A stretch of 64,000 bases of DNA from assembly GCF_963921235.1 (NCBI RefSeq), contig NC_086108.1:64792001-64856000 (forward strand), in the 5' to 3' direction. Positions 3,626-59,505 of this stretch are shown piece after piece. Position 1 is the stretch's first letter; every line of letters starts with the position of its first letter. This DNA comes from Mobula hypostoma (Eukaryota). The notes under the pieces were generated by a model, which was given only the letters and a program-made list of their open reading frames with translations, was not told the origin of the DNA and searched no databases. A program made the translations under genes and the position numbers.

Positions 3626-6600
3626 TTTAGAAGACAACATTTAGGAGGGTGATGGAGTACTTCATCTGCCCAGATGACTGCAGATCCAATAACAGTCAAG
3701 AAGCTCAATACCAACAGGAGACAGTTTGACAGGCACTCCATCCATCACCCTTAATATTCATTCTGTCTGTGTTGCAATATTCACTCTCTGCCAAATGCTC
3801 TGCAATTACTTGCCTAAGCAGCAGTGGCTCCCCTTCATGTAAACGCTGCCACCATAATTGAACAAATGGAGCTGGCACATGGGAGCACTAGCACCAATAG
3901 GTTTCCCTGCAAATTACATATCATCCTGACTTGTATAGACAACTCTGCTCTTTCATTTGTCAGTGGACTTTAAAAATCCGGGAGCTTCCTTCATATTGTC
4001 ACCTTAAGGGCTCAAGCTTCAAGAAGGAGGCTTAGTGCAACTTCTCAAATGCAGTAAGTGGAATGGACACTGACTTTGTCAGTGAGGTTGACAGCCTGTC
4101 ATTGATTTTGGGGAAAAAGAAACCTGTAAAACCATGCATTAATTCTCTACCTGCTAAAAAGAAGAATGCCCTGCTTCCTCACCCTCTATCGTTTTCCTTC
4201 CAATAATTGTTTCAAAACCCCATTCTCAATTTTCTGAGCTACTGTAAGATCACTTACTTTTGACCAGCACACAGGATGATCACCGTTTCCCTGGACCTTT
4301 AACATTTACCCTGTGTCTACTCACATTTTCCATTTGTTTCACTGTTTCTATACAGTTTTTAGCCAGTTCCCACTTTAAAACTAAATATGTGTACTCCAAA
4401 AGGGAATTCAATTATATTAAATTAAACTCGTACATTCATGAGCATTCATGAGCCACATTATTTTTAATTAAGACAGTTTGCCGGCGGCTAGCAAGATTGA
4501 GATGATTTTGGGCATTGCTGGAGTACAGTTACTGAATAGGTGGTGCTTCCAATTTGGAAGTAGTTTCTTTTCCTGAAACTCCGATGTTTCAAGTTTCTGT
4601 TCTTGCCCAGGGCTCTGACAATAGCAGGAAGCCAGTTTTCAAACAGCCCCAACATGCAAGGATTGCTTAGAAACTCGTGTCTGGACTGCTTTTACCAGAC
4701 AATCCAGAACTATCTGGTAAGAGTCAATTAGAAAAGCTTTCCTTATAACTCAATAGACAGAGCACCCTAACAGCAGGCAGCATGTTTGTGCCAGAAAGAA
4801 CTGTCTTTCAAATGCAGGAATATTCCACATAGCTAAACTGAATGGAGCCCCACAAGCTATATATTTCATTAGATCCCAGGGGAAGTGTGGGACGCGGCTT
4901 CCTTCTGCTTAGCTGGGATTTAGCCAAGAACGTTTTCCAGGCCTAGTTTCTACAATAGGCTTGCCTTAAAAAAATATTCTACCAATCACCCAAAGGGCTA
5001 TAAATTTGACATTTCCCACAGATCCTTTACTGCAGTTATGCTGCTTTGTCAGCAATATGTATAAGCTCAAGTGTTCTCTATTGTTTAACCGAGAACAGTT
5101 GAAAGTTTAGTTAAACCAAGTGTTTTCTTTCACTGTCTTCAAAGTTTAGCATTGAAGATGTGAAAAGTAGCAGAGAAATTTTACTAGATTTGTACCTCTT
5201 GTCTTGTGACAACAAATAAACAAATTGTAAATCTTTTTGCTCAAAAATTTAAACAACTATAAATGTGTCAAGAGATTTATGCTGCTTTTTTCTCTTTTTA
5301 AAAAAAAAATTAACCCTCACCCATCCATGTAAGGAGCTTACTTTGTTTTCTTGAAGGAATTAATGAATTGTGGGTTTGGCTGTAAAATTGTGGAGATGTT
5401 CTGGAAGCAATTACATCCTACAGGGTCGGGACACCCTGCTTACTGGCCATAAAGTAATGGAACTCATCCCACAAACACAGTGTCAAGTGGTTTGGAATAG
5501 CTTTAGGCTTAGCCACATGCTTCCAGTGCCCAGTGCAGTGATGTTCCATCAGTCGAATGTATGGGTTTCCGGATTAATATTGATATTTCACCACTAGATG
5601 CTACTGGTATATTTAATAAACACCAGAGTGTAACTTGTGTAAGAGACATAAGAGCAGTAGATGACAATTGCATTAGCTTACTCTCCATTTGGGAACTTCA
5701 AAACTGATACTGAATTCTTCACAAACTGAGCAATAAAATCTAAATGGTTCAATTTGACATTTTAAGATCTTTCTTAGACTTGTTTTGAATTTGGCATTAG
5801 GCATTTCTACCAGTATTACTGGCTTACTCACAAAATTAATCAATGCTGAAGCAAAAGTCTAACAAGGTAATAATTTAAGTTTATAAAGAATTTAAGTATT
5901 TAAATATAATACAGTATTGCTTCTCCTTTGGACATGATATGAACAAAAATTGTACTTTATTTTTCCAGAGTGAAGATGCATTACAAATTTCAGCAAATTT
6001 ACATAATTGCAATTATGAATGATTTATTTTTCCCTTCCAATAAAGGAGATATGCCTTGCATTACTGGTGTGGTTTATTTAATATAATTTAAAAATATTTT
6101 GGCACTAAGCTATAGTTCTAATTTATTGTCATATGTATATTTTCAGAATTCACACATCACAGTCAAAGCCAGTGTTTATATTTTGCCTCCAACTGCCCTT
6201 GAGAAGTTGGTAGTGAGTTGCCTTCTTGAACTGCGCCAGTGCTTCAACATGGTGTTTTTGGGAGAGTTCCAATATTTAGATTCAATGTTGATGAAGAACC
6301 AGGGATATACTTCTAAGTCAGGTTGGTGTGTGACTTGAATGGGATCATGGAACTGTGGGAGTTTCCATACAGCTGCTGCCACTTTCCTTCTTGGTGAGAG
6401 ATGTAGCAGGTTTGGGAGTTGATATTGAAGTACCCTGGTCAATTGTGTAGGAGGATTTCATTGTACATTGTCAGTAAAGTATGATTCTGTATGTTAAGCT
6501 GTTGCTTGACATGTCTGTAGAACAAGTCTTCTCACTTAGAAATAGGTTCCCAGGTGTTGTGAGAAATACTTTGCAAGGTTGACTGGGCAATGCTTGGTCA

Positions 6601-6637
6601 TTTATCCAGTTTTATTTGCAAAAATCAATATTTAAAA

Positions 6638-6750
6638 AATGCAGATGTCAGAAAGCCAAAATAAAAATCAGAGATTTGCTGGAAACATTAAGCACGGAGG
6701 ACTGAGAAACAGTTAATGTTTCAGGTCAAAAATCTTTCATCAGAACTAGG
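6638..6750 (-). mobile_element. Penelope-type terminal repeat with degenerate hammerhead motif (second subfamily)
   Basis: Minus strand 6747-6711 reads AGTT-CTGATGA-AAGATTTTTGACCT-GAAAC-ATT-AACT; AGTT/AACT form stem I. Confidence 0.65.
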
Positions 6751-6967
6751 AAAGATGGAAATAGTTGCTGGGAATATCTATGATCAGGTCAGGCAAAGTT
6801 GTCATGTGAGCAGATTGTAGAAGTTCTCCAGTCAAATGTGTCTTTGAAATGTGTTCCTTTTTTTTTGTTTTTACCATAGTTTACAAAACACTTGATTACA
6901 TTTCATCCACATCCTGTAGCATTTTTGTCACCTTCTCTCCACCTGGAAGGAGATAAACAGAGTTCTT

Positions 6968-7004
6968 AAAAACAAGAGATTCTGCAGATGCTGGAAATCC
7001 AGAG
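6968..7004 (-). repeat. Left part of the Penelope-type short repeat split by the Gypsy insertion; continues at 11648-11685
   Basis: aacaagagattctgcagatgctggaaatccagag|LTR...LTR|cagagtaacacacacaaaat rejoins to the repeat seen at 48068 and 61694. Confidence 0.85.
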
Positions 7005-7255
7005 TGAAGTGTATTCAATATTTCAGTAATATTTGAGTAATATCATACAAACGTAAATATATTATTTCATTGAACATTCTGTGTTTGTTTACATAGCTCA
7101 TTATGGGTTATATGTAAGAAGTATGTGAATGGCATATGTCACTATGGCCACCACATCATATGTGAGTGCCTCACTAAAAGAGAAACTAAGTACATGAGTA
7201 TCCCTGGCTCCTGTGTTTCTCTTTTGATTAGATTTTGGAGTTACAAAACATAACA
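7005..7255 (+). repeat. 5' LTR
   Basis: tgaagtgtattcaat...gttacaaaacataaca; direct repeat of 11411-11647. Confidence 0.95.
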
Positions 7256-9308
7256 ATGGAGACGAGAAAGTTTTAAAATGATCCTGAGACAACTACCTAC
7301 ACATTGAAGAACAGCACAACCCAGCACATTCGCTTCAGAAGGGAGAAGGTTATACAAGTTTTAAATAAGAAGCACAGGAAGTGTTTCTTTGGAAGGGAAG
7401 AGAGACGGTTGAATTTAGAACAAAAAGGCAAAAAACACACAAAATTAACAAGCAACGGGTATTACCAGGAGTTCATAAACAGTGAGTACTGGGTAATAAT
7501 AATAATAAAAAAAATCAGAAATGACTGGCTACATCAGAAAGATAGATGCATTTGATTGCACAACAGATAACTGGTTGATGTGTACTGAACAAATTGAGCC
7601 GATGAAAAACTAATGAGAGTGTAGCTGAATACACTAGGTGGAAAAGCATACAATTTACTTAGAAGTTTACCTGTTCCAACCAAACCAACCGATATGAGCT
7701 TTGCTGGTATCGTGAATGTAATACAGGAACATTTTGAACCTATATGATAGTTGTAAAATGCTTTAGGTTTCATAAGCAAAATTTAAAGGAAGTGAAGTCC
7801 ATTTCAGTTTATGTGGCTAAACTTTTGAACCTTCTTAAACCTTTGAATTGAGGAATTTTTCCAAGCATTGTCAGTTCAGTGATGAGCTTAATGATGTACT
7901 GAGAACATTTAGTTTGTAAAATCTTACAAGAAAACATTCAAAAATGGTTCCTAACTGAAGCACAACACATATTTAAAAGAGCAGTTGAAATTGCTATGTC
8001 AATGGAAGCAGCAGGCAGAGACACAATTGACTTGCAGTTAGGAATGAAAGTGAGAACAAAATTGCAACATCTAAACAGAAACTTGTCTGCCCAAACAAAT
8101 AGTGTTATCATTGCAGAGAGGCTCATATACACTAGACCAATGCAGGTTTAAAGGTGAAACTTGCAGAAAATACAACAAAGTAGGACACATACAAAGAACA
8201 TGTCAGGCAGTGAAAAATAAATGGACTGCACAGGAAGGAGAAAAAAGATTTTTTTTTTAAAAAGTCAAGTTGCAGTTTCAAACAGAACACTATTCTGCAT
8301 TCTGTTGAGGAAAAATCTGATAATGATGCGATTGATACAGGACTGATTAGCCTTAAGATTTAAAATGTGAAAACTAACAAGAGGCAAGAAATATGCCTTA
8401 TACACCAGAAGAGAATAGCAAATTAATTAAAATGGAATTGGACACTGGCTCGTCTGTTTCAGTCATTCCGCAAAATGAGTTTGAATGACATTTCAAAGAT
8501 ACTGAACTGAAACCTGCAGATATCCAACTAAGAACTGATACTGGAGAAATTATTACTTCTGTGCGAATGACATTCACAACAGTGAAATGCGACAACCTAC
8601 AAGCCACATTGGGCTTGTATTTGGTAAAAACTAGAGGACCAACATTGTGGGGCCATGATTAGCTGAGACAACTACAAATTAATTGGAGATTCATCCACCA
8701 TTTATACACCACATCTCCTGCAATAGAGTCAACTGAAAGCAAATTAAGAAAGGTATTGGATGATGCCACAGCAGTGTTCAAGGATGGCATTAGAAAACTC
8801 AAACATATCAAGGGTAAAATACTGTTAAATGAAAATGCCACACTCAAGTTTATGAAGTCTATCCTGTTTTTTTACACCATCCGTGATAAAGTAGTAAGTG
8901 AGCTAGACTGGATGGAGGTTCAAGGAATTCTTTCCAAGGTTAAGAGAAGCCTATGGGAAATGCCAGTAGCTCCAGTAGCCAAAAAGGTTGGGTCTGTCAG
9001 GATCTGTGGTGATTTAAAGGTCATTGTCTAGCCAGTCCTGAAAGTAGATTAATACCCTCTGCCCAGGATAGAGGATATCTTTGCAAACTTTCTGGAGGGA
9101 AGCACTTCGTCAAAGTGCACTTAACTGTGTCCTACCTACAGGTGGAGCTGGAAGAAGAGTCCAAAGTATTTCTCACCATAACACTCACAGAGGGCTTTAT
9201 CACTATAATAGGCTTATTTTTGGAGTAGCATCTACACCTGCACTCTGGCAAAAAAACTATTGACCAAGTGCTGCAAGGGTGCCCCGGCACTCAGTGTTAC
9301 CTGGATGA

Positions 9309-9944: not shown

Positions 9945-10466
9945 CTGGATGACATCTTTATTACTGGTGAGGATGACAAGGAACATCTCCAAAATCTCAA
10001 AACAGTGTTAAAAAAAATTGCAAGAGTATGGGCTCAGAGCACAATGTGACAAGTATGAATTCTTTAAACCAAGTATCATTTATTGTGGTCATACCATTGT
10101 CGCACAGGAATTACACAAGTGTGCTGAGAAAAGTTAAACAGTGGTGGATGCCCAAGGCCAAAGGATGTGTTACTACTGTAGTTCTTTTTAGGACCTGTCA
10201 ATTACTATAACAGGTTCCTGCCAAACCTGGCTACTCTGCTTCAACCCTTGAACTCATTACTGCAGATGGGGAAGAAATGGCAATAGATAAAGCTGTGTCA
10301 GGTAGCTTTCCAAAAGGTGAAGGATACCTGTACTCTCATGCACTGTATACACTGTCAGACACTGTACTCTCATATTATCATCCACATTGCCCAATGAAAC
10401 TTGTCTTTGACACCTCACCTTATGTATGGGTACTATCTTGGCACATGTTATGAGTGATGGAAATGA

Positions 10467-10620
10467 AGTTACAAAACACAACACAGAGTAACACACACAA
10501 AATGCTGGAGGAACTCAGCAGGACAGGCAGCATCAATGGAGAGGAAGGAAGAGTCAAATTCTTGGGCCAAGACCCTTCATCAGTCCTGATAAAGGGTCTC
10601 GGCCTGAAACATTGAATCTT
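10467..10620 (+). repeat. Ectopic copy of the LTR end, TSD and flanking Penelope-type palindromic repeat inside RNase H
   Basis: agttacaaaacacaaca-cagag-taacacacacaaaat matches 11631-11667 with 1 mismatch, then continues as the short repeat with back-to-back hammerhead-like cores. Confidence 0.85.
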
Positions 10621-11410
10621 GCATCATAGTTTTTTTTATCATATTCCCATACTGCTGCTGAAAAAAATTTACACACAGATTGTCAGAGAGGCCTTGAGTC
10701 TGGTTTAGGGTGTAAAACATTTCAACCAGTACTTGTACGGGAGAGAGTTTACCATCATTACTGACCATCAAGCCCTGGTGTCAATTTTCAATCCACAGAA
10801 CAGTGTTCCACTAACAGCAGCAGTACAAATGCAGGGATGGGCTCTGTTTCTTGGAGGACACAATTACAAGATGAATTCAAGAGAAAACTAATCATGGAAA
10901 AGCTGATGTATTGTCCTGTTTTTCCGTGGGAAAGGAAATAACTGAAAAATTTACAAAAGAATACACTGTTTCACTCCCGAGCAAGCAGTGTTTATGAGGG
11001 ACTAAAGAGGTGACCAAAAATGTGTATTTTAAAAGATTAAGGACAGAACTGGGCCACCCTCCTACACAGTGAAGATTGTGCCTGATGTCATCTAGAGATG
11101 ACACATCTATCAGCTGAGAAGAGTGGAGTCAATTCTTAGAGAAGGAAGGTGTCCAGAGCTGTCAGAACCACTTCCTGCAGTCCCAGAGTCAACTCCTACA
11201 ACCACTGCAGAGGAGGCTGCAGAACTTGAGATGGTTTCCTAGCCACAAGTGTCACCTGCCAAGCAGAGTGACTCCATTTGTCAGCAAAGATGTTATCCCA
11301 CAAGAGTAAAGAATCCTCCACATACATATGGGCTAGAGAGCATTACATTATATATTTGAGTTGAGATGCATACTATATTGAGTTAGAGTTTATTGCTAAC
11401 CAGGAAGGAG

Positions 11411-11647
11411 TGTAGTATACTCAATGTTTCAAGTTATATTTGAGTAATATTGTAAATATGTTGTTTGATTAAGCATGTTTTGTTTACATAATTTACTATG
11501 GGTTATATGTAAGAAGTACATGAATGGTTTTAGGCCACCATGTCAAATGTGAGTGCCTTACTAAAAGAGAAACTACTATAATTACACAAGTATCCCTGGC
11601 TCCTGTGTTTTTCTTTTGATTAGTTTTTGGAGTTACAAAACATAACA
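11411..11647 (+). repeat. 3' LTR
   Basis: tgtagtatactcaat...gttacaaaacataaca; diverged from the 5' LTR, with reciprocal TG/CA differences typical of CpG decay. Confidence 0.95.
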
Positions 11648-11699
11648 CAGAGTAACACACACAAAATAGATGCCTGACCTGCCAATAAGCAGAACTCTT

Positions 11700-12039: not shown

Positions 12040-12630
12040 CTCAAAGGACTGGAGAGTAACCAGTATTATTCCGTTGTTTAAGAAAACAAAAGAGTTCATC
12101 CAGAAGATTATTGGATGGTGAGTCTTGCATCAGTGATAGAGACTCTATTGGAGAGTGGCCTTATATGATTTGGGAAAGCACAGGCTTACAAGGGATAGCC
12201 AGCACGGCTTTGTGTAAGGCAGGTCATATCTTACAAACTTGCTTAAGTTTTTTTAAGGAGGCGATGAAAATGGTTGATGGTGGTAGGGTAGTGAGTATTG
12301 GAGGTATTTGACAAAGTCTCTCAAGGTAGGCTGAGGCAGAAGATGAAAACACATAGTTTCTTGTCCGTGTAGATTGGATTTAAAGTTGGCTTACCCATAG
12401 AAAACAGAGGGTAGTGGTGAAGGAGTATTTTTCTGACAGGATGTCTGTGACCAGTGGATTTCTGTAGGGCACCCTTGGTTCTAACAAATGTGAACTATTT
12501 GGACAAAAATGTAAATGGACTGCTTTGTAATTAGTGCAGTTGTGTATAGTGAAGAAGTTTGTCAAAGGATACAGTAGAATATAAATCAGTTGAAAGTATT
12601 GTGGAGAAATGTTAGGTGGAGTTTAATCCT
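12040..12630 (+). mobile_element. Decayed CR1 RT fragment
   Basis: gactggagag...ccgttgtttaagaa, DSQHGFV...SYLTNL-like segment, agaaaacagagggtagtggt. Confidence 0.75.
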
Positions 12631-13228
12631 GTCCTAGCAAAGACCTGGATCCGCTGCAAATTGCCTATCGCAATTTGGTCTATGGAAGATGCAATTTCTT
12701 TGGCTCTTCATGTGCCCTTGGATCAGTTGGACAATACAAATTCCTATGTCAGGTTGTTGTTTATTGACTACAGCTCAGCATTTAACACGATCATTCCTAC
12801 AGTTCTGATCAAAAAGCTCCAGAACCTGGGCCTTTGCAACTCAATCCTTGACTTGCCAACCAGAAGATCACAATCTGTGTGGATCGGAAGTAACATCTCC
12901 ACCTCGCTGATAATCAACACTAGTGTACCTCAGAGTTGTGTGCTTAGCCCACTGCTGTACTCTCTCTACACCCATGACTGTGTGGCTAGGCACAACTTGA
13001 ATGCCATCTATAAATTTGCTGATGATGCAACTATTGTTGGCAAAGTTTCAGGTGGTGACGAGGAGGCATACTGGAGTGAGATAGATCAGCTGGTTGAGTG
13101 GTGTCACAGCAACAATCTTGCACTCAACGTCTGTAAGACCAAAGAACCAATTGTGGGCTTCAGAAACTGTAAAATTAGGGAACACACACCAGTCGTCATA
13201 GAAAGATCAGGATCAGAAGTAGAAAGAA
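12631..13228 (+). mobile_element. Rex1/Babar-type LINE RT fragment
   Basis: ORF 12616-13266: YVRLLFIDYSSAFNTIIP, VPQSCVLSPLLYSLYTHDC, KFADDATIVG, NLALNVCKTKE. Confidence 0.9.
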
Positions 13229-14885
13229 CTTCCTTATATATATGGCAGAACAAAACCCTAGGTTAGGTAAAAGGCATTTACAGAAATCTAAAAAAGACGG
13301 GGGGGGGGGTGGTTAGCGCTCCTGAATTTTAGATTTTACTATTCTACTATTGGGCAATTAACATTCAATACTTAAAATTTTGGTTATGGGTCTTGGATGT
13401 AATTTCAAGTCCACATTGGGTAAATCTTGAATGTAATTCTTTACAAGGGTTTTCATTGGTTCTGTTTTAGGGACTTCGCTTCCTTTTATTCTTTCTAAAT
13501 TGTATAAACAAATGAATAACCCAATAGTTAAACATACTTTACGTATATGGTTTCAATTTCGAAAAATTTTTGGGTTGAACCAATTTATTTTAGCAAGTCC
13601 AATTATATCTAATTTCTTTTTTCAACCCTCCACTGTGGATCAAGCTTATTTAGATTGGAAAATCAAAGGTATAGTACGATTTCGTGATTTATTTTTGGAT
13701 AATTGTTTTATGTCCTTTGAACAGCTATCTAATAAATACAATTTCCCTACATCTCACTTTTTAGATATTTACAGGTTAGAGACTTTTTAATTACTGTTTC
13801 TCCTAATTATCTACATTTATATCCAATGGATATTTTGGAAAAAATTTTAGATTTAAATCTTCTTCAGAAAGGTGTTGTAGCAATTATTTATAATATAATT
13901 ATGAATTTGTGTCCTGATGTATCTAATAAAATTAAAACTGATTGGGAAAGAGAACTCAAGATTACTGTACCGATTGAAAAATGGGAAAATAATTCTTCAA
14001 TTAGTTAACTCATCCTCTGTATGTGCTAAACATGCGTTGATGCAGTTTAAAATAGTGCACAGGGCTCATATGACCAAAGATAAATTATCTCGTTATTACT
14101 CTTATATAAATCCTATATGTGATAGATGTCATTCCGAGATGGCTTCTTTAACTCACATGCTTTGATCATGTCCTTTGTTGAAAAAATATTGGAAAGATAT
14201 TTTTGATATTATTTCAACGGTTTTGAATGTAGACTTACAACCTCACCCAATTACTGCTATTTTTGGGTTACCAATGATAGAATCAAATCATTTAACCTCT
14301 TCAGCTCGTTGGATGATTCCATTTCTTACTTTAATGGCTAGAAGATCCATTTTGCTGAATTGGAAAGAGATTAATCCTCCTACCACATTTCATTGGTTTT
14401 CTCAAACTATGCTGTGTTTAAATTTGGAAAAAATTAGAAGTTTTGTTTATGACCCCTCTATCAAATTCAAAAAGACTTGGAGGCCATTTATTCAACATTT
14501 TCATATGATGTAATTTGACCATTTCCAAACTTATTTTACTTCTTTGTAATGTTGGTTGAGAGGAATGGAGTCGCCGACACTAAGGTTTTCTTTTTTCTCT
14601 CTGTTTACGATGTTACAAAACAGCCCATGTCTTTTTTAGTTTAGTTGATTAATTCGGTTTAGATTAGTTTTTTTGGGTTTTTTTCCCCCTTTTTCACGAT
14701 TTTTTAAAGATATTTTTCTTTGTTTTATATTATTCACTTGTATCCTATATGATTGGGAGTTTTATCATTTAAGTGTTATCTGGCTTTATAATCACTTATG
14801 TTAATTATAACAATGTATTCCCAATAACTTTGTACTACTACCATGTTATGTTTATTTTTATGAAATTAATAAAAAGATTGAAAAT
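13229..14885 (+). mobile_element. 5'-truncated L1-clade LINE (ORF2 C-terminus and 3' UTR)
   Basis: Frameshifted ORFs 13500-14513 with QFKIVHRAH and the CCHC motif CDRC...LTHML*SCP; ends aattaataaaaag; 13-bp TSD GAAGTAGAAAGAA at 13216-13228 and 14886-14898. Confidence 0.9.
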
Positions 14886-19767: not shown

Positions 19768-20678
19768 TAAGACTGTACCACAATGGTTGTTTTGTGGGGC
19801 TTTCTGTGTAGTTGGGAATAAGAAGAAATATGTGTAACACAAATAATGACACCAAAAGAACATCAGACATGGTGTTATGAAGTGAGCACAGATGCACTGG
19901 TCCAATTTTTTTTATTGACACAACTTTACCTGGAAAAAAAACCTGTTACCCAGTGCTCTCCCAATGAAGTTAGAATTGGATTGCTTTTCACCTAAAGATG
20001 GACATCATGTGATCCATTTTCTGTGCTCTTGTTCTGTTGTGTTGTTTAAATTGACAATGCTTGAAATCATGTTGTTTATTCCTTAATATCTCATTGCCTG
20101 TTAGGAGGGGCCCAATGCAATGTTGTATTAATATTAATCTTAGCGTGGTATTGATAGTTTCGCAGCTGTTAAAGTGCATGTGTTTAAGTTCCGATATGTT
20201 AAAGACACCAGTGGCACTTGTCATTATGAAGAATAAATCTTTCAACATGTTGTGGCTGAAAAGGCTGAGTAAAGTGGTTTATGGTAGGATTGTTTGTCCC
20301 ACAGACCATGGGGTTAATTAGAGGTTACCATTGCCTCACCCCTTCCCTTCTCTCCTCCCCCAGCTGGAAACACAACAGGACTCTGAGCAGTCAGTCTGCA
20401 GTCATGACTTTGACCTAAATTTGACGGAAAAATATAAGTTTCCTTTACCATGAGTGCATCACTAAACATATTAAGAGATTTTTTATCAATTAATCTTGGT
20501 GTGTGCATATAACATGTTATTTATTTAAATATAATTTATACATATACAGATGCATGCACTTCTGTTAGCATATATAATGAGAAATCATGAGAAAACTGCT
20601 TTTAAATTGTTTAATCTTTCTGTTTGAGGCATACTTGATTTTTAAAAGTTTTCTATGCTGCTTATTGACTTTAATTGA

Positions 20679-20818
20679 GCATCAGAGTTTGATGAAGGGT
20701 CTTGGCCCGAAACGCTGACTGTACTCTTTTCCATAGATGCTGCCTGGCCTGCTGAGTTCGTCCAGCATTTTGAGTATGTTGCTTTGATTTCCAGCATCTG
20801 CAGATTTTCTCTTGTTTG
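20679..20818 (+). mobile_element. Penelope-type short repeat with degenerate hammerhead
   Basis: TTGATGA-AGGGTCTTGGCCC-GAAACGCT-GACTG...ccagcatctgcagattttctc; flanked by imperfect direct repeats ttattgactttaattga and tcattgactttcattga. Confidence 0.85.
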
Positions 20819-23488
20819 TCATTGACTTTCATTGATGTAGACAGATGTAAATTATTAGAATCAGATGTTTATATTTTGGTGTTGCCTGAAATATGTAATA
20901 TAGATGTAAACATTTGTATGTAGAATATTGGATGGCTTATGGTAGATACCTGATATAGCAGCTTTCTGATCGTAAGGTTTGGCAGTGCAGCTTGCTTTGG
21001 AAAGTTACTCGGGGGCCCCTATTAAGTATTCAGGAAAAAATGCAAAGATTTTTCAGTGTGTTTTTATAATATTTTAATAGTTTTAGTTTCATAAATTTTG
21101 AAGTGAAGCATTAATATTTCTTATAGTACCCTTGATACATTTATTAACCTAGAAAAATAGTTTGTGAAGCTGCTTATTCAACAGAATTGTCTTCCCTGAA
21201 CCCGTTGAACTTGCTGTTTTACTTGGTCAGATTGTGTGGCTCATGAAGACAATTGTCTTGTGGTTCAGTAAGGGGAGAAATGATTGTTTCCTGTATTTAA
21301 AAAAAAGTTGCTGCGTAATTTTGTTTAGATGAGTTAGCAATACTTAATTACCTCTATATATTAAAGAAAATTAAAATTCTAATTTAATAGCATTTGCTTG
21401 AGAACTGCAGGGACCAACCTGTTGGTGCAACAGTTTAAACCCTGATTATCATAGCAGTTACTTATTTTCTGTTTTCTGCGAAAGCTCTTCAGCTTTAAAT
21501 TATTGGAGGTAGGATTTTGCAACTACACTAGAATTTGACGGAAGCACAAAAATGAAAAAGTCATAACATATTTCAAATTTGCTTTTCATTATTTAAGTTC
21601 AACAAAATACGAACAGGAATATTTTTTATTTACATCTTTTTCTTCAATTCCTGAGTCTTATTATCCTAAAGGAACTAGCCCTTTTAATGGCCCATTATGA
21701 CAACATTGCTCTTGGTATCTTTAAGTGTTCAAATGAGTCTGAATTCTTTTTAGGAAGGATGTTTATGGCCAAGCCAATGAGAAAGTTGACTCAGCACCAG
21801 CAACAACCGCTGAATGTACTATGTTGCTTAGATTTGCATAACAATGGACCCTAGGTTAAGGGGAATATCCCAAATTCAATGTAGAGCTAAAAAAATACAG
21901 GCATAAAGTGATACTAAACACTGCACAGAATCCTCACACCTCCTACCTTGCTTCCTATGAGTGGATTGTGATAAACCAATACCCCCTCTCCCTCCACTAT
22001 CACCACCACTACACCTCTCCCTAGACTAGAGCTAGTCCCTAGTCTGTTGCTGCTTGTTTCTCTTTTCACTGAAGGGGAATTGACATTGGCTAATATGATC
22101 TATCTTTCTCTATCTACTGTTTCCATTCTCCTCTGCTGTGCAGTATCTTCTGAATCTTCTCTTCATCAAGCTCTTCTTCTTTCCCATTTACCTTTCCCCT
22201 CAAAGAACATGGCTCTCATTTGTAGTCCTCCTGTTCTCCTCCAATACCTGCCCTAGCACTTTGTTCTTCATCCCATGATGTCTCCTGCTTTGATAATACA
22301 CTACTTTGTCTGCCTCTCTTCCCCTTTCATTCTTCTCCTTATCTAGCACCATTTGCCCATCTATCACCATCTATCACTGTTGGCACCTTCCTTGATTACT
22401 CAACACCTAGTGATCTGTTGTACCTGAATGCTGGGCTTTATCTTTACCTTTGCTACAGTGCAATCACTTGTTGGCTATTGAGCTGAGAGTGGATGGGTTA
22501 AGAATTAAACTTTAGCAAAAGTGATGAAGGCAATGAATGTACAATGACAATACCCAAGAACTGATTTAATTCAGTGAGAGCTTTTAGTGCATATTTGGAT
22601 TACTGGAGCCATTATTTATTGCAGGAGATTATTATATTGGATTGATAGGACCCATTCTCTCACTAGTAAATTTCCAAAAGGCTGTCTGTAGTTACAAATA
22701 CAATAAATGATTGCAATAAATTTACGGTACTATTTCACTATTTTATTAAATAGTGTTATGATAACCTTCAAAAATTGTTGGATTCTTTGTATCATTTGAG
22801 AAATGCCAATCTAGCTTCAGTACAAAACCACATCTCTCAACATTTTGACAAATGTAATCCTTGAAATTTTGCACAGTTTTAATAGTCATATTTTATAAAA
22901 GTAGAATAACTAATTTTGAGAAAGGAGATGTGAGAAAATAGTGGGCAGAATGGGTGAGCCATTTGAATTCTTCTCAAAGCCACAGACGGAACTGCTTGAT
23001 GGAATAAAACTGAGATCTTGTTTGATTTGTACAGATGTTAATGATTTTGCTCTTTCTCTCCACCACACCCCATGTGTAGTAAGTTTGGATAGTCTTGACT
23101 CGCTCAGACCATAACAAATATATAAAGCTACAACTCATTTCACATTAAGGAGACAGTATCTTTTTGGAAGATCAGAAAAATAGGCTGTGTGTGAAATTCT
23201 TGACATTGGGGTTGAGGCCCCTTATTGAAACTAATTCATGGAAATTCATCTGTTGATACTACTGCATACTGATACTAAACTAACAATATAGAAAGACATT
23301 CCACTCCCCAGCACTGAAGTGTTCACTTTACTGTGCTCAAAGTTCAACCTCTGCTTCAATACTTAAAAAAAAATATCGTCTGGGAGTTTACAGCCCCACA
23401 GTGACTAGTATGATCAACAGCATTATTTCAGTTCATACATGTATAAAATTTAAATTGTAAAATTCAATTATTGACTTTAGCATTATTC

Positions 23489-23621
23489 TTTTCAATTATT
23501 TGATGTAATGGCACATGTTCTTTTTGGGGGGAAAGTGATTGCATTTTTGAATTTTCAATTACTTGATTTAATGGCACAAATATTCCTTTTTGGGGGAAAG
23601 TGATTGCATTTTTGAATTTTC
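23489..23621. repeat. Local tandem duplication, 2 x about 64 bp
   Basis: ttttcaatta...aatggcac...gggggaaagtgattgcatttttgaa occurs twice in tandem. Confidence 0.9.
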
Positions 23622-23835
23622 TCTGGAGTAGGTTTCCTCCCTTTGTCATTTTCTTGAAAAAAAAGGTGTAGCATTAGTAGAATTTGTCAACTGTTTTCTC
23701 TCAAACTAAGAGAATGCTGCATGGAAAGGATTTAAAAAAAAATAAATGAGAAAATGATTGATGAAGTTTGGTTATTGAGGGAAGATGTGAGAAGAGAAAA
23801 ATGCTACGTAAGTTTTGTGAAAAAGTGGCAGGTTA

Positions 23836-23963
23836 CTGACGAAGGGTCTCGGCCTGAAACGTCGACTGTACTTCTTCCTATAGATGCCGCCTGGCCTGCT
23901 GCGTTCCACCAGCATTTTGTGAGTGTTGCTTGAATTTCCAGCATCTGCAGATTTTCTCGTGTT
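23836..23963 (+). mobile_element. Penelope-type short repeat with intact hammerhead core sequence
   Basis: CTGACGA-AGGGTCTCGGCCT-GAAAC-GTC-GACTG at 23836-23868; 9-bp direct repeat CAGGTTACT at 23829-23837 and 23964-23972. Confidence 0.9.
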
Positions 23964-25606
23964 CAGGTTACTTTTACATCTAATTCAACTATGAAACCGG
24001 AATTAATAAAATATGATAAGCTTGTAACCTTATTTTTTTGATGTTGAGTACTACAAGATCCTTTTGGAATTTCTGTAGGTTGGAGCATTCTTGATCCAGG
24101 CAATGCTTCATGTTCAAACACACATGAACTCAAAGGCCCCAAGGATCTCATCAACTTCAAGACTTTGTCCCCGGGGTCAGGGACATCCTGTCAATAGTGA
24201 CTAGGCTCCAGGTGATGGATCTCAAGGCATTACTTCTCTATCCTATGGTGCCCTAATGGTCTGATGGCTTAGGCGTTTCTGTATGAATGATAAATATGGT
24301 TGAAACAAATCTAAAAGATTTTTTAAAAATCTTCCTGTGTTTAGAAATAAATCTTATGAATATTTAAATAAAATTCAGTAAAACAAACCACTTCCCTTTC
24401 TTGCTTTTTCCATCTAGGTTGAATGGGGCTGGGCTAAGTATGTTAGTAATGGCTAGCTTAATGCTGAGGGGCCAGGTGCAAAGTGTATCATTTCTTGGCC
24501 AATACAATTGAGTTCACCCTCTGGACCAGCATCTGATCTCCAGTACATCACTACTTCTACCCTCCAATGTGCAGACATGGAGGTCAAAGGCGTGTCAAAC
24601 AACAGGGGATAGGTGGACAGCTGTTGCATACAGGATTGTTACCAACAATGAAACACGATCTGGTCTTGTTCCTCTTTGTAAATGTACATATAATGGTTTC
24701 AGAAAACTGCACCAGCATATTTATGCTTAAGTGCTGCCAGTCAAATTTAGTTTTGGTAGAGATAGACAGAATATTATGAAATATATTTTTGTCCTTTGTG
24801 CATGGTATCTTCAAATATAAGAGGAGAATATTCCCAAAAGGCAGATCCTGCGGACAATGCCATTGGAGTTCCAATAGGAACTATATTCCTTTATTTTTTT
24901 CTTTCCTTTTCTTCTGGGCACAACTTGTTTGGTTGCTGCTGTTAAACAGTTCGTGGCAACCTGCAGATTGAAGATTTCTGTACATTCACCTGTATTTTTA
25001 CTTAGACAGTCATTCTCCCTTTCTGTTTTTTTTAAATGGTTCAGCTGAGATAAATCTGATGTAGCTCATTCATGTGTTTTCTTCCAATCTAGGACATGCC
25101 ATCTGAGACCAGTATAACTCAGCTCCAGGAATTAGGCACAAGGGTTTTGGAGCTTTTGTAAATGAGAAAACCAGCTGTGGAACACATACCTGTCCTATTA
25201 CATGATGAGTAACTGCTTCAGAAAGCCATTTATGGGTTTATTTCATTGAATATAGAATGATTTCAACTGGAAACCTTGTGGCTTACTTCTTTTATTAATT
25301 CTAAAGTATTTTGCAAAATAACATTTTTTGAAAACTTTGTTCCCTTTCTTATTCAGTTTAGTTGTCAAGATAAGGTGATGTAAACTTTATAAACTTTTTT
25401 TTAATAACTGGCCTTGGGCTGTTGTTGCAAAATTATGATGATGTTTTATGTTCTTTGCCCAACATTACAAAGTACGACTGACAACTGTGAAGGCAAATGG
25501 ATAGGATAAGTTTTGTTTTTTAATATATGTAATTAAAGATGATTTTAAAATTAGATCTCACCCCCCCACCCCCAACCTCTCGGAGAAGCAATATGCCACT
25601 TTTGTC

Positions 25607-37990: not shown

Positions 37991-38539
37991 CAAATCGCTC
38001 TCAGCCCTGAAGAGACAAAAAGTAACCTTATAAGTACAATGATGCAGCGTTCATAGATTTAACAGGGAGGATGGATGGTGATTTATACAGATGTCATGTT
38101 AGAACGAGGAAGGGCATTCAGGTGAGGAGTGCTCATAACTTGACTGGGTTAACGAGATTGCTAAGTCCATATAGAGCAGATGTCTGCCAGGAAATTACTT
38201 AACATTTTTCTGCTTAATTTGACGTGCTCCACAAAGCTGGTTTGTAGGAGTGCTACTCCCTTTGTTTGTTTAACCTCCAAGCAGGCAGAGTCAGCAGAGC
38301 TAGTTTCATCTTGCCCATCTCTGAAGAGCTGCTTGCTTGAGAAGAACTCCAGTTTGGAGTGAAATCACTTCCAGAACTGACGCTACCAGCAATTTACCAC
38401 TTCTTTGCAGATTGGGCCATATTTACAATCGAGGCAGCACTGAAGGGCCACGTATAAGAAACATATTTTAACATTAACTGAATACAGCCAAGCATTGATA
38501 CTTGCAATTATTATTTAAAAATGCATATGACGTACTGTT

Positions 38540-39130
38540 CATTTCCCCCTCACCACTCCACAGATTTCTCCCACACAGCCTCACTCACTCTGTCATTACT
38601 GATTTCCCTGTTCCATTCACTCCCATCTCACTGTCCTACCCACCTCCTCACAGCCTCAGTCGCTCCCTATTTGCTCTTCCAGTCATTCACTTTTTACTCC
38701 CTCCTCAACTCACTGTTCCCCTCAGTCCCTCCTTCCAGCCCCTCACTGCCCCACATGTTCCTCATTGTTCCTGTGCCCATTCATTCCTTCCTCACTTCAC
38801 CACTCATTCACCCTCCTTTGCTCTCTGTACACCCTCATGCTCCCCTACTCCCTCCTCTCACTCCCCTGTTCTTGCCTTTATTATTCTTCCATTCACTACT
38901 TTCTTGCTCCTCCACTCACTCCCTCCTTGACGCTGCACCGTACAGAAAATTGTGTTTATACTCTGAAAGTCAGGCAGAATATTTGGGCAGAGAAGCAGAT
39001 TTAGCATTTCACGTCATTGACCGAGCATCATTACTGAAAGGTCTTCAACCCAAAATGTTAACTATTCTTTCTCCACCAGAGTTGCTGAATATTTCCTAGA
39101 TCGGACTTCTAGCAGCTGTAGTACTTTGTG
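38540..39130 (+). repeat. C/T-rich low-complexity tract followed by a degenerate Penelope-type terminal repeat
   Basis: Pyrimidine-rich 38540-38930; tactgaaaggtcttcaacccaaaatgttaact at about 39032-39063 resembles the reverse complement of the 6711-6747 motif. Confidence 0.5.
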
Positions 39131-44219: not shown

Positions 44220-44282
44220 ATTCAGGTCAGTCTGAAAGTCCTAGCCAGGCAAGTGAGGATATCAAGGACCAGCCAGAAAATG
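44220..44282 (+). CDS. NFIA: Internal coding exon (exon 3) of nuclear factor I A; 63 nt, phase 1-1
   Basis: Acceptor tattttctgtctttcag|A and donor AATG|gtatgt. Translates as (D)[20 protein letters not shown](G), against human NFIA exon 3 as I recall it, [23 protein letters not shown]. The DIKDQPENG end separates it from NFIB and NFIX. Too short for the ORF track. Confidence 0.93.
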
Positions 44283-45129
44283 GTATGTATTAATTTGACA
44301 TGGAGCAGTATTTTTTTTTCTGGATTCTGCAGAAGAACAACTATCCTTTTAAAATTAGCTTTCAAAGAGCGATGTACTCATCTTTAAAACCTGAGAGAGG
44401 CTGGACGTAAGCATTAAATTCCATTCAAAACTTAGAACAAAAAAAAAATCATGTGTATGGTAAAGTTTATTTATGTAATTTTGACAATAGGGCTGTGTGC
44501 AAATCATGAAAACTATATATATGTATATCAGCAGGTTGCTTTTCCTTCTACTGAGGAATTAAGTCCTTAGATTGAAGAGGAAAAGATAGTCATCTTAGTT
44601 TCTATTAAGATTGCTATACAAATCACTTGGCATCAATGAACATGGCATCATTTGTGTAAACACATAGTTTGCATGGTAGGAAAAAAGTTGATGGCACGTG
44701 AAGAAAAGGGTGCCATATTCAATAAGGAGCTATTTTCAATGAGCATTAGCATTTGTTTTTAACGTTTTAACCCTTTTCTAGAAAGGAGTTTTCAGAGAAG
44801 CTTCTGATTCCCTGCCTGCAGTCACTGATGAGCTGAGTATTAAAGGTGCCATGTCTTCACTGGAAACTGGATTTATAATATTATACTATGTTGATTTTCT
44901 GTTCATTTGTGTCTGACACTAAAATTGTAAGGTAGAAACTTGAAAATAGTGTTCTAATTAACTTTTTTTCCTGATATGTAATTTATTTATTTTAATTTTA
45001 TTTCAAATGATTATAAATACAATGATTTCGATATTCCACCGTACAGCACAATACAGTATTGGGGTTTAGAACATAAAAAAATTACAGCACAGTACTGGCC
45101 TGTTAGCCCATGAGCTGGAAATGTCTGTG

Positions 45130-47945: not shown

Positions 47946-48067
47946 TTTCTCCTTTCTTGGAAGCAGGGTAAGTAACTGCAAAGATCATTGCCTTATGAAC
48001 CTACCTTCCATGCTGCAAGATGAAGAGTATTCATATCCATTTCTTAACAACCAATCCAATATGACTG

Positions 48068-49640
48068 AACACAAGAAATTCTGCAGATGCTGGAAATCTT
48101 CAGCAACACACACAAAATGCTGGAGAAATTCAGCAAGTCAGGTAGCATCTATGGAGGGGAATAAACAGTCCATGTTTTGGGATTCTGAAGAAGGGTCTCA
48201 GCCAATGTTCCCTCTAATTTTTAGTAGTCAGTGTGCGCAAAAATATTATGTTGTGCAAATTTTTTTCCTGTGACAAAAGTATGTGGGCACTGAATGCACA
48301 CATGGCACAGTTTATGTAGGTTTACAAAATACTTGACATAAAACTGAACAGAATAACAACAAAATAACATACATATTTAAGTCACTCAGTTATTTTTTCT
48401 CTCTGCTGTCTTTGGCACTTACCTATTCTTTGTAAACTCTATCTAGGCTAGTAGAACTTCCATCCAAATGATAGCTTTTGATTCTTATTAACATATCCAA
48501 ATGACATTCACCTAGACGGTTTCTCAGCTTGTTTTTGAGTTGATTCATTAGGCTAAAACCTCGCTCACAGTCTGCACTAGATGCAAGAAAGGTTCCCCCA
48601 ATGTCCATCCATCAACTGTGCAAGGTCGCAAAACTGTTGATTTTGAAGTACAAATGCCACCATTTGAGCAAAGTTTGAAATCAGTTGGGATTTAATTTTT
48701 TGTTGCATGGAAAATTTGAAATCATTAAACTGTCTAACTATTTACAGTATTTTCAGCTAGAAAATCATGATATTTTAGACATAAGGCATTAACTTGTTCA
48801 TCGCCAAATGGGAAGTCACAATCTGCAATTGCGGCGAAATCAAAAGCTGACCACTCTTGTACCTCATCTTCAGAAAACCTTTCTTCTAAATGAACACAAA
48901 GACTATTTATAAAAGTCAACAGCGAATTTGTATCCACTGAGACGTTTTCTTCACATTGTTGGCTTAGCAAAACTTTAACTTTGTCACTCCTGAAACATTG
49001 TCTCCCAGATACTGCTTTCTTATCTTGTTAATTTTGCCTTATGCAAGATGATGTGAATCAATCGGTGTCAGGCCACTCTTTTGCAGAATCTTGCATTGTG
49101 CAGCCAGTTCATCAAAGACCTCTCTTAAAACCTGTAAAGCTACTTTGTATGTGATGTTTATCAATTTCTTGTGACAGTATTTAGCCACAGGGTTATTTGA
49201 CTGATCTTTTTCAATAAAAACTTATTAAGCTATCTACAGGATTTGAAATAGATCTTTGTAAATTTTATGATATGAACACTGCCCGCCAAAGATGGCTGCT
49301 GCCGTGATGCAGCTGTATAAACTGGAACAGGAAAGGTGAGGTGACATAAATTAGTGACGTGCATTGTGGTATTTGAAAAACCAACTAACTAGTTAACAGA
49401 AGCATTTAGCTAAAAGATTATTTTCAATAAGTATAATTATTAATTACTACATTATTTTAGGTAACTAACCTTTTGTGCGCACGTTAATTTCCTTTGTGCG
49501 CTGGTTGAAAAACGTGTGTGCGCGCACACACGCACACAGCTTAGAGGGAACATAGGTCTCAGCCCAAAATGTCGACAGTTTATTCCCTTCCATAGATGCT
49601 GCCTGACTTGCTGTGTTTTCCAGCATTTTGTGCATGTTGC
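48068..49640. repeat. Palindromic Penelope-type repeat split by a hAT insertion
   Basis: 48103-48181 is an imperfect inverted repeat of 49563-49640; the rejoined centre reads CTGAAGA-AGGGTCTCAGCCC-AAAAT-GTC-GACAG. Confidence 0.85.
48203..49555 (-). mobile_element. hAT DNA transposon deletion derivative with transposase C-terminal remnant
   Basis: TIRs CAATGTTCCCTCTAA / TTAGAGGGAACATAG; 8-bp TSD GTCTCAGC at 48195-48202 and 49556-49563; ORF 48423-48608 ASSADCERGFSLMNQLKNKLRNRL is the hAT dimerisation domain. Confidence 0.95.
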
Positions 49641-52600
49641 AATAAGATAGAAGCTATCTTAGATCTGCCTCCCTCTGCCCTTGTGCTGCTTCCATCAGAT
49701 TATTCCTAATTTTGCACTTCTTGCCCAGCCTTGGAATGATGCAAAGTTTTTATGTGCAGTCAAGGCTAATGATTCTTTCAGTTGCAATGAATTGCACATT
49801 GTGCAGTTAAGAAAATTGAAGCCCAGCACAAATCTGGTACTGGTTTGCAGGGAGGCATCACTTTAAGTCAGGGATGAATTTCCAGACCTATGTGTATACT
49901 ACCTCTTATTATACAATTGTAACAAACAGTACACCATTCTGATTAGTTGTGAGACTTTTTACAATTGAAAATGCAAAGTCCATTGGTTTCAAAATTATAA
50001 TGAGTGTGAAGGATTGGATTGAACTCTTGATACTGTTCAATGTAGACAGCTTCATTTCCAGATATTAAAACAATAATGTAGGAAGACCACTGCATAGTAT
50101 AATTAAAATAAATGCTATTTGGATGGGAGTGTGTGCTCTGGGCAGCTATATTTAGAAATGTAGATTCTTGGTGTTCAGTTTGAAAGGTTCCCCACAGGAA
50201 ATGGATGGGTGGAGGGATGTTTAATCCTCAGAGGCATACAATTCGACAGTTATGCATATTAGCCTCATTAGTGAGCATCTCAAAATAATACTTCCATCTA
50301 TAATCATAAATGGAATTTCCAGCTGTAGGAGCATGCATTATTGGTGTGGTCTTACCAAATTTACTTGAGATCAAAACTGGTAAGGAAAACTTAATAGCTT
50401 CACCAGAAGTATGAACTTTTTAAAAACTTAATTACTCTGTATCCTGAAATTACTTAACATTTCGTGTTTAATGTAGGGATGTTATGATTTTAGTTAATCT
50501 CTCAATGATTACATTAGTGAATATTCAGTCATTTCATAGATTGTAATTTTGTAAAATGAAAGTATATTAATACAATATGAAATATTACACAAATGCAGTT
50601 TGCGGTGAGTTTTATACAAAATGCATTTAAGTTTAGACAAATTGATAGTTTAATTGGACACAATGAAAACTTCTGGAAAGCAAAGGGATTGATAACTAAT
50701 TAGTTTTATGGGGTGTGTGTGTTATTGCCAAGACCAATATTTATTGTTGAACTCTGTTCTTCAGAAGGTGTTGAGGAGCTGCTTTAATGAATTGTTGCAT
50801 GCAGTCTTTTTGATGAATGTACTTTCTCAGTACTATTCAGGAGGGAATTCCATGATTCTTATATTTCTAAGCGACGTAGGTGTATAATTTGGAGGGGAAA
50901 CTGGGGCCATTGATGTTCCTATGTACTTGCTGCCTTGTTTTTCGTGGTGGTAGAAGTTGTAAACTTGGGAGATGCTGTCAGAGTAGACAAGGTAAATAAC
51001 AGCAGAGCACTTTGCAAATTCTATCTGCTGCTGCCTTTGTGCAGTGGTGGCAGGAGAAATTTATGGTTAGGAGAGTGGATGGTATTTCAGTCCAACAGAC
51101 TTCTTTGTCCTGGATAGTTCTGAGCATCTTCGGTGAAGTTGGAACCATGCTCACCCAGTCAAGTAATGACTATTCACCTTCCTGAATTGTTCTCTCAAAA
51201 TGGTGGCAAGGCTTTGAGGTATAAGAATGTGGATTATTTACTGCAGTATATCTAGTGTCTGACCTGACCTTACATCTTCACTATGTGGATGATCCAACTG
51301 AATGAGTTGTCAGATAGAGTAACAAAATGCACTCTATCGTTAAAGCTTTTGACTTTAACATATTCTTCTTAAAGTAGAAACAGCAAATAAATCTCATTAA
51401 TATGCATGTTCCATTTTGTAAAAGGTGGGCTTCATTAGAGCATCAATTGTGACTTGCTTTGAGTTCCTTTGCTGTAGAGTGTACTTGATCTCAGAAATTA
51501 AGTGCCCATGTTGTAATATCATATTTTACCTTATCATTGAGCCATTACCTTAAGCTATACAGACCAGTTATAACTTGACATGATGATAAATTTGCTCACT
51601 TTATATACTTCCTTCATTCCCCTTCCTTTGTTTATTTTACATTTTGGTGTGAGATTTAAAGGAAGAGAGAACAAAAATGCAGAAAAATGAGTGAGAGACT
51701 GTAAAGGAGACAAATAAAAATGTGGAGTCAGCAATGGTTAAAGACAAAAAGTAGAAAGATTGGAGGAAATGGAAAGCATACGACAAGCAGAGGGGCAATC
51801 GTAGGAAGGGAGAACATTCAGCAGATGTTTTGTCTGTGTTGAGTGTTCTGAAATATCGAGTAATGTTAAAAAAACAAAACAAAGCTAATGGGCCGGATCA
51901 TTTTGGATGCAGTCCATTACCAAGACTTGCTGCTTGTGATCCTTGCCACCTGGGCTTAATTTTTCTGAACCTAGTGGGCCAGAGGCTTTCTACAAGGTGG
52001 AGAAGGCTCACCATCAACTAACGCTCAGGCAACAGAACAGAGGACCCTGGCTCCAGCCTTTGACAGCTCACTGCTGCCAAGCTTTTGAACAGTTTTTAAA
52101 TGATTTTAATAGTTAAAGAAATTCCAAAACTATTTGAACGTTTTAATGAAAAGTAACATTAGATTAAATGAAAATAAAAAATGAATTACAAGTACATGAA
52201 AAGACTACCTAGTACTTAGAAAGGAAATGAAGTAAAATAATTTGAACATTTACCTGCATGTTTCTTCTCCCACAGGGTTGGCGAACTCATTCAAATGAAG
52301 AGTGTTGCCTTTGGGCTGGAACTCCCTCCTGGGGTAAAGCTGAGGGGCCGGATGCAAACTGCATCCAGACTCTCCCTTTAATGGTGAATTCAGCAGTGGG
52401 GTGGGTAAGGTGCACAGGCATCTGATCTTCAGGGCATTTCAGCTTCTGTGTCTCATTATGCATACACGGGTGTCCCAGGTGCCCTGGAATTTTAACAGCT
52501 GATTGCTGACTACTCACAATGAAACCTGGCTGCAGCTTAACTCATTTCAGCCCAACGTACTCCCTCTTCACATCTTAATTTTGGTTAATCAAAAAAAAAC

Positions 52601-58739: not shown

Positions 58740-59505
58740 ATATAGAATAGAATTTTATTTCTTACATTCATCTCACAACGAGGGAGTAAAAACCTTTATG
58801 TTGTGTCACCGTCACAATTTACAAGCAATAAGGAAGGGAAATATGGTAGGGTATTGCTCAAACACTAAAATTGTATACATAATTGTTTTGTATACATGTA
58901 TGTGAAGTCAGATACAATGTACAGTCAGATATGCAATCAGATCAATATGTACTGGTAAATCTGATGGCCTGGTGAAAAAAGTTGTCCCGGAATCTGTTGG
59001 AACTGGCTTTAATGCTGCGGTACCATTTGCCAGACGGAAGCAGCTGAAGCAGTTTGTGGTTGGAGTCCATGATGGTCCTCCATGCCCTTTGTATGTAACT
59101 GCTGCTGTAAATGTCCTGAACAGAGGAAAGTTCACATCCACACTGCTCTCTGTAGTGACCTGCGATTGAGGGCAGTACAGTTCCCATACCAGGTGGTGAC
59201 ACAGCCATTCAAGATGCTCTCGATGGTGCCCTTGTAGAAAGCCCTGAGGACTTGGGGACTCATGCCGAACTTCTTCAGCCATCTGAGGTGAAAGAGGCGC
59301 TGTTGTGCTTTTATCACCACACTGCCAGTATGTATATTCCAGGTGAGATCTTCAGTGATGGGTATACCAAAGAACTTGAAACTACTCACCCTCTCAACTC
59401 CAGTCTCATTGATATCAATAGGAGCTAGCCTGTGTCTGTTCCTCCTATAATCCACGATCAATTCCTTCATTCTTTCGATATTGGGGGAGAGGTTGCTTTC
59501 TTTAG
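58740..59505 (-). mobile_element. Rex1/Babar-type LINE 3' part, nested in an older + strand CR1 (about 58640-59845)
   Basis: ORF 59132-59470 KELIVDYRR...KAQQRLFHLRWLKKFG...FYKGTIESIL; ORF 58942-59208 LLPSGKWYRSIK; atagaat tail repeats. Confidence 0.9.

Follow-up and report, generated by a model that had tools for sequence, protein, structure and literature searches.

The question raised by position 23836 of the 64,000-nucleotide stretch of Mobula hypostoma DNA analysed here (the window, 39% GC) is what a set of hammerhead-ribozyme letters is doing there, and whether it could cut the transcript of the gene in which it appears to lie. Our reading, to which we give a probability of roughly 85%, is that these letters belong to a 128-bp insert, that the insert stems from a very abundant Penelope-like element (PLE) as a dead copy of its terminal repeat (pLTR plus tail) with the 5' part cut off, and that it is predicted not to cut NFIA pre-mRNA. 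By its repeats the window is apparently vertebrate intron DNA, and a splice-site scan gave a 63-bp, NFIA-like coding exon of the host gene at 44220-44282 (+), about 20 kb downstream of 23836 and on the same strand. The 21-amino-acid translation of 44222-44284(+) has a single PDB match at E≤10, Nuclear factor 1 A-type (9xvq_A, residues 180-201, E 0.0033), which bears out the placing of the repeat on the NFIA strand in the original prediction. Pfam did not recognise the 63-bp exon, and eighteen NFI motifs of 4-5 amino acids located no exon in the window and none upstream of 44220. Position 23836 probably lies, in sense orientation, within a long intron ahead of the NFIA-like exon.

The motif begins with CUGACGA in RNA letters (CTGACGA in DNA) at 23836-23842, followed on the same plus strand by A23843, GGGTCTCGGCCT at 23844-23855, GAAAC at 23856-23860, GTC at 23861-23863 and GACTG at 23864-23868. 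Set beside the published consensus, the first of these letters form a hammerhead core (C3 to A9) with one unpaired A ahead of helix II (23836-23843, +), and 11 of 11 core letters are present. Pairing computation gives a 4-bp helix II, GGGU/GCCU, with a CUCG loop (23844-23855, +); GAAAC-GUC (23856-23863, +) supplies G12-A14, the loopless palindrome ACGU (23859-23862) and the predicted cut after C23863; and GACUG (23864-23868, +) is the 3' arm of helix I, which is without a 5' partner in this copy. The hammerhead letters and the cut after 23863 had been placed correctly in the original prediction, which also stated that the copy is truncated at the core and lacks the helix I 5' arm; a pairing count that looked for this arm upstream of C3 indeed found 0 pairs. 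Its helix II, given as AGG...CCU, was off by one in register: in a 401-nt context the pairing probability of G23844-U23855 is 0.48, versus 0.011 for A23843-U23855, so that A23843 is the unpaired base between positions 9 and 10.1, and the register GGGU/GCCU makes 10.1-11.1 a G-U wobble in the 23836 copy (position 11.1 is C in four of seven aligned copies). The minimal hammerhead (min-HHR) defined by Cervera and De la Pena (2014, PMC4209133), to which the motif had been likened, has the consensus NNN CUGANGAH GNNNNN...C GAAAN palindrome NUH NNN, and this fits with the exception of helix I. Judged by its letters, the motif at 23836 is the published PLE min-HHR consensus except for the absent helix I 5' arm, and the copy is a putative truncated min-HHR member, incomplete as a ribozyme.

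How much weight these letters bear depends on chance. In 300 order-2 Markov simulations of a 64-kb window, a relaxed pattern of core plus helix II, with helix I left out, turns up 0.17 times per window on average; in the real window it is found at two places, 23836 and 27776, the latter an AT-rich look-alike, and at none once a helix I of at least 2 bp is added. Because of this chance rate the relaxed pattern is weak evidence alone, and it is membership of a repeat family that carries the case. The hammerhead-model search that had been proposed came back blank: Rfam gave 0 matches at gathering score across the window, and at E≤10 in 23700-24100 it gave three chance matches, none to a hammerhead model, a blank that is unsurprising if, as seems probable, it reflects the lack of a helix III in the motif. 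Folds of the monomer form no hammerhead, and their stability is not above that of shuffles (z -0.10, 0.48 and -0.85). That the letters are a chance look-alike within some non-PLE repeat, as the 17% of simulated windows with the pattern and the Rfam blank might suggest, we consider very unlikely, since the chance pattern includes none of three features that the family has: the matching arm of helix I, a base left unpaired ahead of G10.1, and a palindrome without a loop.

The insert occupies 23836-23963 (+), is a 5'-truncated member of the repeat family, and differs from the window majority at 12 of 128 positions. A 9-bp exact direct repeat, CAGGTTACT, stands at 23829 and 23964. Its left copy, CAGGTTA(CT) (23829-23837, +), is read as a target-site duplication, and as the last 2 nt of this copy lie within the element's 5' end and double as core C3-U4, the duplication is 7-9 bp long; the right copy is at 23964-23972 (+). 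The flanks are 71-74% AT. The last ~33 nt (23931-23963, +) are an optional 3' extension that we read as a PLE "tail", other copies stopping at the equivalent of 23929-23930. Since the insert crosses the predicted cut site, the RNA that served as its template was either uncut or rejoined. A two-copy, 65-bp tandem duplication is found at 23489-23621, 200 bp upstream of the insert, and within the element a pyrimidine tract and TAG/ATG lie just 3' of the ribozyme (23869-23886). The element's 3' end and the duplication (23964-23972) together read CAG/GTTACT, and these letters would allow a frameshifting cryptic exon of 83 nt in the NFIA sense (23884-23966); it was rejected as a candidate, since of the 2,500 GT sites on the plus strand ahead of the NFIA-like exon, 90 reach its donor score of 7/9.

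Relatives of the repeat were found in the window by BLAST and profile search at 20690(+), 10583(-)/10581(+), 48182(-)/48185+49556(+), 61793(-), 7001(-), 39036(+) and 6743(-). The 23836 copy matches that at 20690 with a BLAST E of 6e-37, and seven aligned copies are 9-15% off their majority. This sister copy (20664-20835, +) has the core changes C3>U and U16.1>C and a 15-bp flanking duplication (20664/20821, 14 of 15 identical); with the 7-9 bp at the 23836 copy it upholds the predicted retroelement origin with flanking direct repeats of its own, and none is clear at four other loci examined. Another sister copy (61697-61793, -) is truncated within helix II, a tail-only piece of the family (6969-7001, -) is 33 bp long, and an old, decayed copy at 38935-39125 has a weak inverted arm. 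Two head-to-head inverted pairs are centred at 10585 and 48183. In the first, a fold-back pair (10487-10615), the arms meet at the helix I 5' arm (10581-10585), the one place in the window where CAGTC is seen as this arm, and both cores are damaged; in the second (48065-49641) helix II is split by an insertion of 1.35 kb that has an 8-9 bp duplication. An older, diverged copy (6705-6748, -), antisense to NFIA, retains the letters of the core and the two arms of helix I (UAGUU/AACUG) and has a damaged helix II and palindrome.

Several other features of these loci deserve mention. The fold-back junction at 10547-10615 is centred on TCAGTCCTGA, a sequence self-complementary about the 5' arm of helix I and the CUGA box; the junction's hairpin is predicted at -41.2 kcal/mol (z -6.6), and the self-complementarity of TCAGTCCTGA could make it a natural snap-back point for cDNA, explaining inversions that start there. 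The insertion at 48194-49566 in helix II of a family copy has inverted ends CAATGTTCCCTCT...AGAGGGAACAT and the duplication GGTCTCAGC, and we take it to be a hAT-type DNA transposon; a related end is present at ~9311. A second dispersed repeat (7002-7255, 11408-11667 and 10464-10503), with a pair 79% identical, borders on 3' ends of the family at 7001 and 10487/11667 and may form a composite or a nested insertion with it, and a 450-bp pyrimidine-rich low-complexity stretch (38480-38930) lies immediately ahead of the old inverted copy at 38935-39125.

If the core were under selection in these dispersed copies it should be better conserved than its flanks, as the original prediction had it, and this is not what the window copies show: mismatches against the majority number 8 of 59 in the core and 39 of 389 downstream (Fisher p 0.37), a count made on seven of eight alignment rows (the old copy 39036 was dropped and 6743 lies outside the alignment), with extents set by reading the junctions. 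Dispersed copies thus decay regardless of their core, and one intact core in seven is the expectation of neutral decay at ~10%. The CpG at C11.1-G12 is intact in one of the seven, three of which have G12>A. The family consensus put forward earlier agrees with the alignment except at position 17, which is split (C in three, T in three and G in one of the seven). Covariation is at shuffle level, with two pairs showing two-sided change and 266 of 500 shuffles as high, in six rows of which one is misregistered and most are without a 5' arm of their own. Two observations stand against calling the copy dead: none of its 11 core letters is lost, and seven rows are all that the conservation test comprises. 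In addition, copy 6743(-) keeps CUGAUGA and GAAAC and shows, by eye, a U-A pair at the base of helix I in place of the C-G of the younger family; this one case is in line with a putative ribozyme kept in the active lineage, and a core retained beside an altered helix I pair also counts against a chance look-alike. No sign of a function of the 23836 copy at the NFIA locus is supported.

Public sequencing runs give a wider view of the family. Four of 24 listed runs were placed on 23630-24830 at 80% likeness, and contigs placed number 45,364 from X5, a related species' run, and 35,059 from X16, nearly all on 23835-23963, in agreement with the earlier description of an abundant dispersed repeat. 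In X5 the depth on the repeat is ~10^5-fold that of the flank, a rough figure that gives no copy number. Upstream of 23836, the consensus of the loose ends closes with (C/T)AGTC in all four runs, which indicates that the helix I arm absent from the 23836 copy exists in the family. Loose 3' ends fall at 23958/23963 and, for X16 and X18, at 23921-23931 as well (in X16, 143 and 106 at 23921/23931, and 302 and 906 at 23958/23963), giving two 3' ends 30-40 nt apart; in the window, copies end at the equivalent of 23929-23930 (two copies), 23963 (three) and 23939 (one), and there is one tail-only piece. Joints between opposite strands gather at 23835-23845, and 8, 2, 0 and 1 contigs across the four runs (X5 8, X16 2, X18 1) have a head-to-tail joint from 23963 to 23836, among the joints listed (15 of 39, for example). 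The upstream consensus of X5 and X18 has a pyrimidine run and TTTCAG immediately before TTAGTC, an acceptor-like sequence at the 5' edge of helix I; an acceptor-like site at a comparable place is described for the intron of the D. virilis element in the available text of PMC4209133. Run X17, which carries the species label of the source and whose RNA origin is a guess, is not counted as evidence: the unique flanks (23630-23793 and 23999-24736) are bare of its contigs, and no position rich in molecule ends is listed for it, contigs being unable to show RNA ends.

The same runs bear on the age of the insertion. Contigs of X5 (16 other letters over 890) cross both insert junctions, so the insert is present there. 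In X16, which differs by 25 letters over 380, positions 1479-1647 of a contig 1,705 letters long (depth 8.15) match 23658-23828, and 23999 is covered by a contig of equal depth whose end is 23 letters away. The last 58 letters of the former fit a resumption at 23964 (end 24021) and not a colinear continuation (end 23886). By this coordinate arithmetic on one contig from one outgroup species, the X16 site is apparently empty, with a single copy of the direct repeat. An insert present in a close relative and an apparently empty site in a more distant one point to a lineage-specific insertion and not to a conserved intronic ribozyme.

Where the copies begin is the point on which a different origin has to be weighed. 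The 5' ends at 23836, 20679-20690, 10581-10586, 48185 and ~39030 are at or slightly upstream of the CUGA box, those at 61793 and 48182 fall within helix II, and 6743 extends further upstream; five of eight copies or arms with a recognisable 5' end have it within ~10 nt upstream of C3, too few to test. No 5' end at the cut site was seen among the window copies. The ends seem to collect not at the cut site of the ribozyme but at its outer edge, a pattern that random truncation of a PLE does not explain and that may leave room for a short non-autonomous unit or for an RT stop at the ribozyme edge. The original prediction had suggested such a unit. In this rather unlikely alternative, the ~135-nt unit would be an element of its own (SINE-like or retrozyme-like) that derives from short or head-to-tail master loci, its master RNA beginning at the outer helix I edge and being mobilised in trans by PLE protein, with the 23836 copy an inert daughter. 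It would account for the observations that upstream of the (C/T)AGTC loose ends agreement is only 0.39-0.44 in four of four runs, that no two window copies have upstream sequence in common, that head-to-tail joints are found in three of the runs, and that several joints re-enter at 23836 by way of spacers ending in AGTC; a 2026 preprint (10.64898/2026.07.22.740005) derives, in its available text, both tandem retrozymes and monomers from PLE pLTRs. The break pile at 23836 in the run mapping is, however, partly made by construction, because the reference copy begins there, and low agreement may mean that there are several subfamilies; moreover, the X18 consensus continues upstream as shared pyrimidine-rich sequence, the window 5' ends vary by several bases with two of them inside helix II, and truncated ordinary PLE copies are the published norm (PMC4209133 and the Craig et al. 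preprint, as far as their available texts go). A non-autonomous element is thus possible and not needed, since heavy 5' truncation combined with an RT start ~100 nt downstream of the ribozyme, as the accessible part of PMC11167929 describes, gives equal ~130-bp pieces.

The truncated-PLE reading calls for an autonomous partner, putatively a PLE with RT and GIY-YIG domains. Pfam searches of the 150 longest of 228 open frames (at least 62 aa) in the window gave no RT plus GIY-YIG frame tied to the repeat. They gave two RVT_1, one ALKBH8_N and one Tc1-type transposase match, none beside a family copy; these fragments (12616-13263, 60845-61159, 59135-59527 and 56304-56597) are ordinary LINE and DNA transposon debris. 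At 48047-48148(-) a 27-codon hydrophobic open stretch runs from an ATG after a pyrimidine tract to the tail end and could start the element's frame; a search with the 34-aa peptide of the 48148(-) copy gave 0 matches among 1.84 billion representatives, and pattern scans for further copies were blank in metagenome, viral and prokaryote genome collections. As no frame found in these searches ties the repeat to RT and GIY-YIG, its PLE identity rests on the motif and on four structural hallmarks. The hallmarks seen are two 3' ends with a 30-40 bp optional tail, inverted 5' partners, partial tandems, and a short, variable target-site duplication with 5' truncation. The missing frame and the shuffle-level covariation would suit a look-alike in a non-PLE repeat, but tail, inversions and tandems are PLE hallmarks independent of the motif. 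Truncation at the 5' end, inverted partners, partial tandems, tails and duplications of 8-10 bp are all described for PLEs by Arkhipova et al. (PMC3846280) and the Craig et al. preprint in their available texts, and the two 3' ends found here match the optional 30-40 bp tail and two RT starts given there and in PMC11167929.

In the truncated-PLE reading the element's GIY-YIG endonuclease would nick an AT-rich site in the intron, and RT would begin inside the element RNA at the outer of its two start sites, setting the 3' end at 23963. It would then copy ~128 nt of uncut RNA across the predicted cut site and join the target at the CUGA box through a 2-nt microhomology. Repair would leave the 7-9 bp duplication, and the inserted copy, probably inactive, would decay neutrally from then on.

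A copy that lacks one arm could still be cut by another molecule, and the original prediction had foreseen this. In this scheme the 23836 copy would be the substrate half of a two-molecule hammerhead, with an intact family RNA, perhaps aided by element protein, providing the helix I 5' arm, CUGA, helix II and GAAAC and cutting the NFIA intron after 23863. We regard it as highly improbable. GUC-GACUG and the ACGU palindrome are intact on the NFIA strand, intact 5' arms are common in the family, and cleavage by PLE hammerhead dimers is published (PMC4209133, available text). Against this, the helices that would hold the two halves together are predicted to be weak (-4.7 or -3.1 kcal/mol for helix I and -1.7 kcal/mol for ACGU/ACGU), and GUC is predicted to be mostly paired in its local context (unpaired 0.14-0.27). 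No intact enzyme half was found on the plus, NFIA strand of the window, where the other copies are broken in the core or split. Published activity is low even in tandem, single min-HHRs giving no cleavage and dimers low cleavage in the available text of PMC4209133, and one of nine frog dimers being cut in the 2026 preprint (10.64898/2026.07.22.740005) as available; and the insert is apparently absent from a species a few percent diverged. The broader idea that sense-strand half-hammerheads in this lineage's introns are dispersed substrates, at which family RNAs and element protein cut nascent host transcripts (NFIA at 23863, for example), is scarcely credible to us; if true, such trans cleavage would mean that retroelement activity tunes the expression of long-intron genes. 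The real job of the ribozyme, if any, would be in full tandem elements elsewhere, with two motifs pairing through ACGU.

By itself the 23836 copy matters little, being one more truncated PLE end with a published minimal hammerhead. The very abundant family is a large natural data set on the role of PLE hammerheads, in which core selection between subfamilies, intron strand bias and cDNA ends can be followed, and 5' ends at the outer edge of the ribozyme would suggest that the RNA has a defined end, or that RT stops, at this edge. The literature search, for which repeat databases were outside the scope, gave no paper on the repeat family at 23836; tables of the 2026 preprint may cover a relative.

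Among known systems, the type I hammerheads in amniote introns, for example that of RECK (PMC6155905, available text), also lie on the sense strand of an intron. They are few, canonical and conserved across amniotes, whereas the 23836 copy is one of very many and incomplete: the RECK type is marked by a complete motif at a conserved orthologous site, and here helix I is absent and the X16 site apparently empty. Non-LTR retrozymes (PMC7229834; Li, Clavereau and Pollet 2026 preprint, 10.64898/2026.07.22.740005; available texts) share with the family short non-coding hammerhead units, a relation to pLTRs and dispersed monomers, and the preprint, which includes one chondrichthyan genome, derives tandem retrozymes from pLTRs and found one of nine frog dimers active. 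Retrozymes are, however, tandem arrays of at least two units, each with a complete hammerhead and with a mean of 363 bp in the chondrichthyan, while the 23836 copy is solo, 128 bp long and incomplete, with a PLE tail and duplication.

The closest likeness is to PLE min-HHRs. In the available text of PMC4209133 these have, as here, CUGANGA and one unpaired base before helix II (a published min-HHR feature), a helix II that opens with G, GAAAC-GU-H and no loop III, with G-U at 10.1-11.1 in several published motifs; they too are mostly dispersed single copies, thousands of single motifs per genome that the authors ascribe to truncated PLEs, with close pairs on opposite strands. The differences are that the helix I 5' arm is present in the published motifs and absent from the 23836 copy, that helix II is 4 bp here and 7-8 bp in the schistosome motifs, that the alignment in that text includes no cartilaginous fish, and that the family here seems to have far more copies than the 4,000-9,000 motifs of coelacanth and frog. 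In the green anole element Poseidon PAc (Frangieh et al. 2024, PMC11167929, available text) RT starts at two internal sites that define the tail, the ribozyme cuts only with protein, insertion is normal when the ribozyme is mutated, and RNA-seq gave no ends at the cut site. Its reading frame begins in helix II, whereas the searches made here gave the family at 23836 neither frame nor protein; what PAc and the family appear to have in common is a hammerhead ~100 nt upstream of two internal RT starts and an optional tail, AT-rich targets, and inserts made from uncut RNA.
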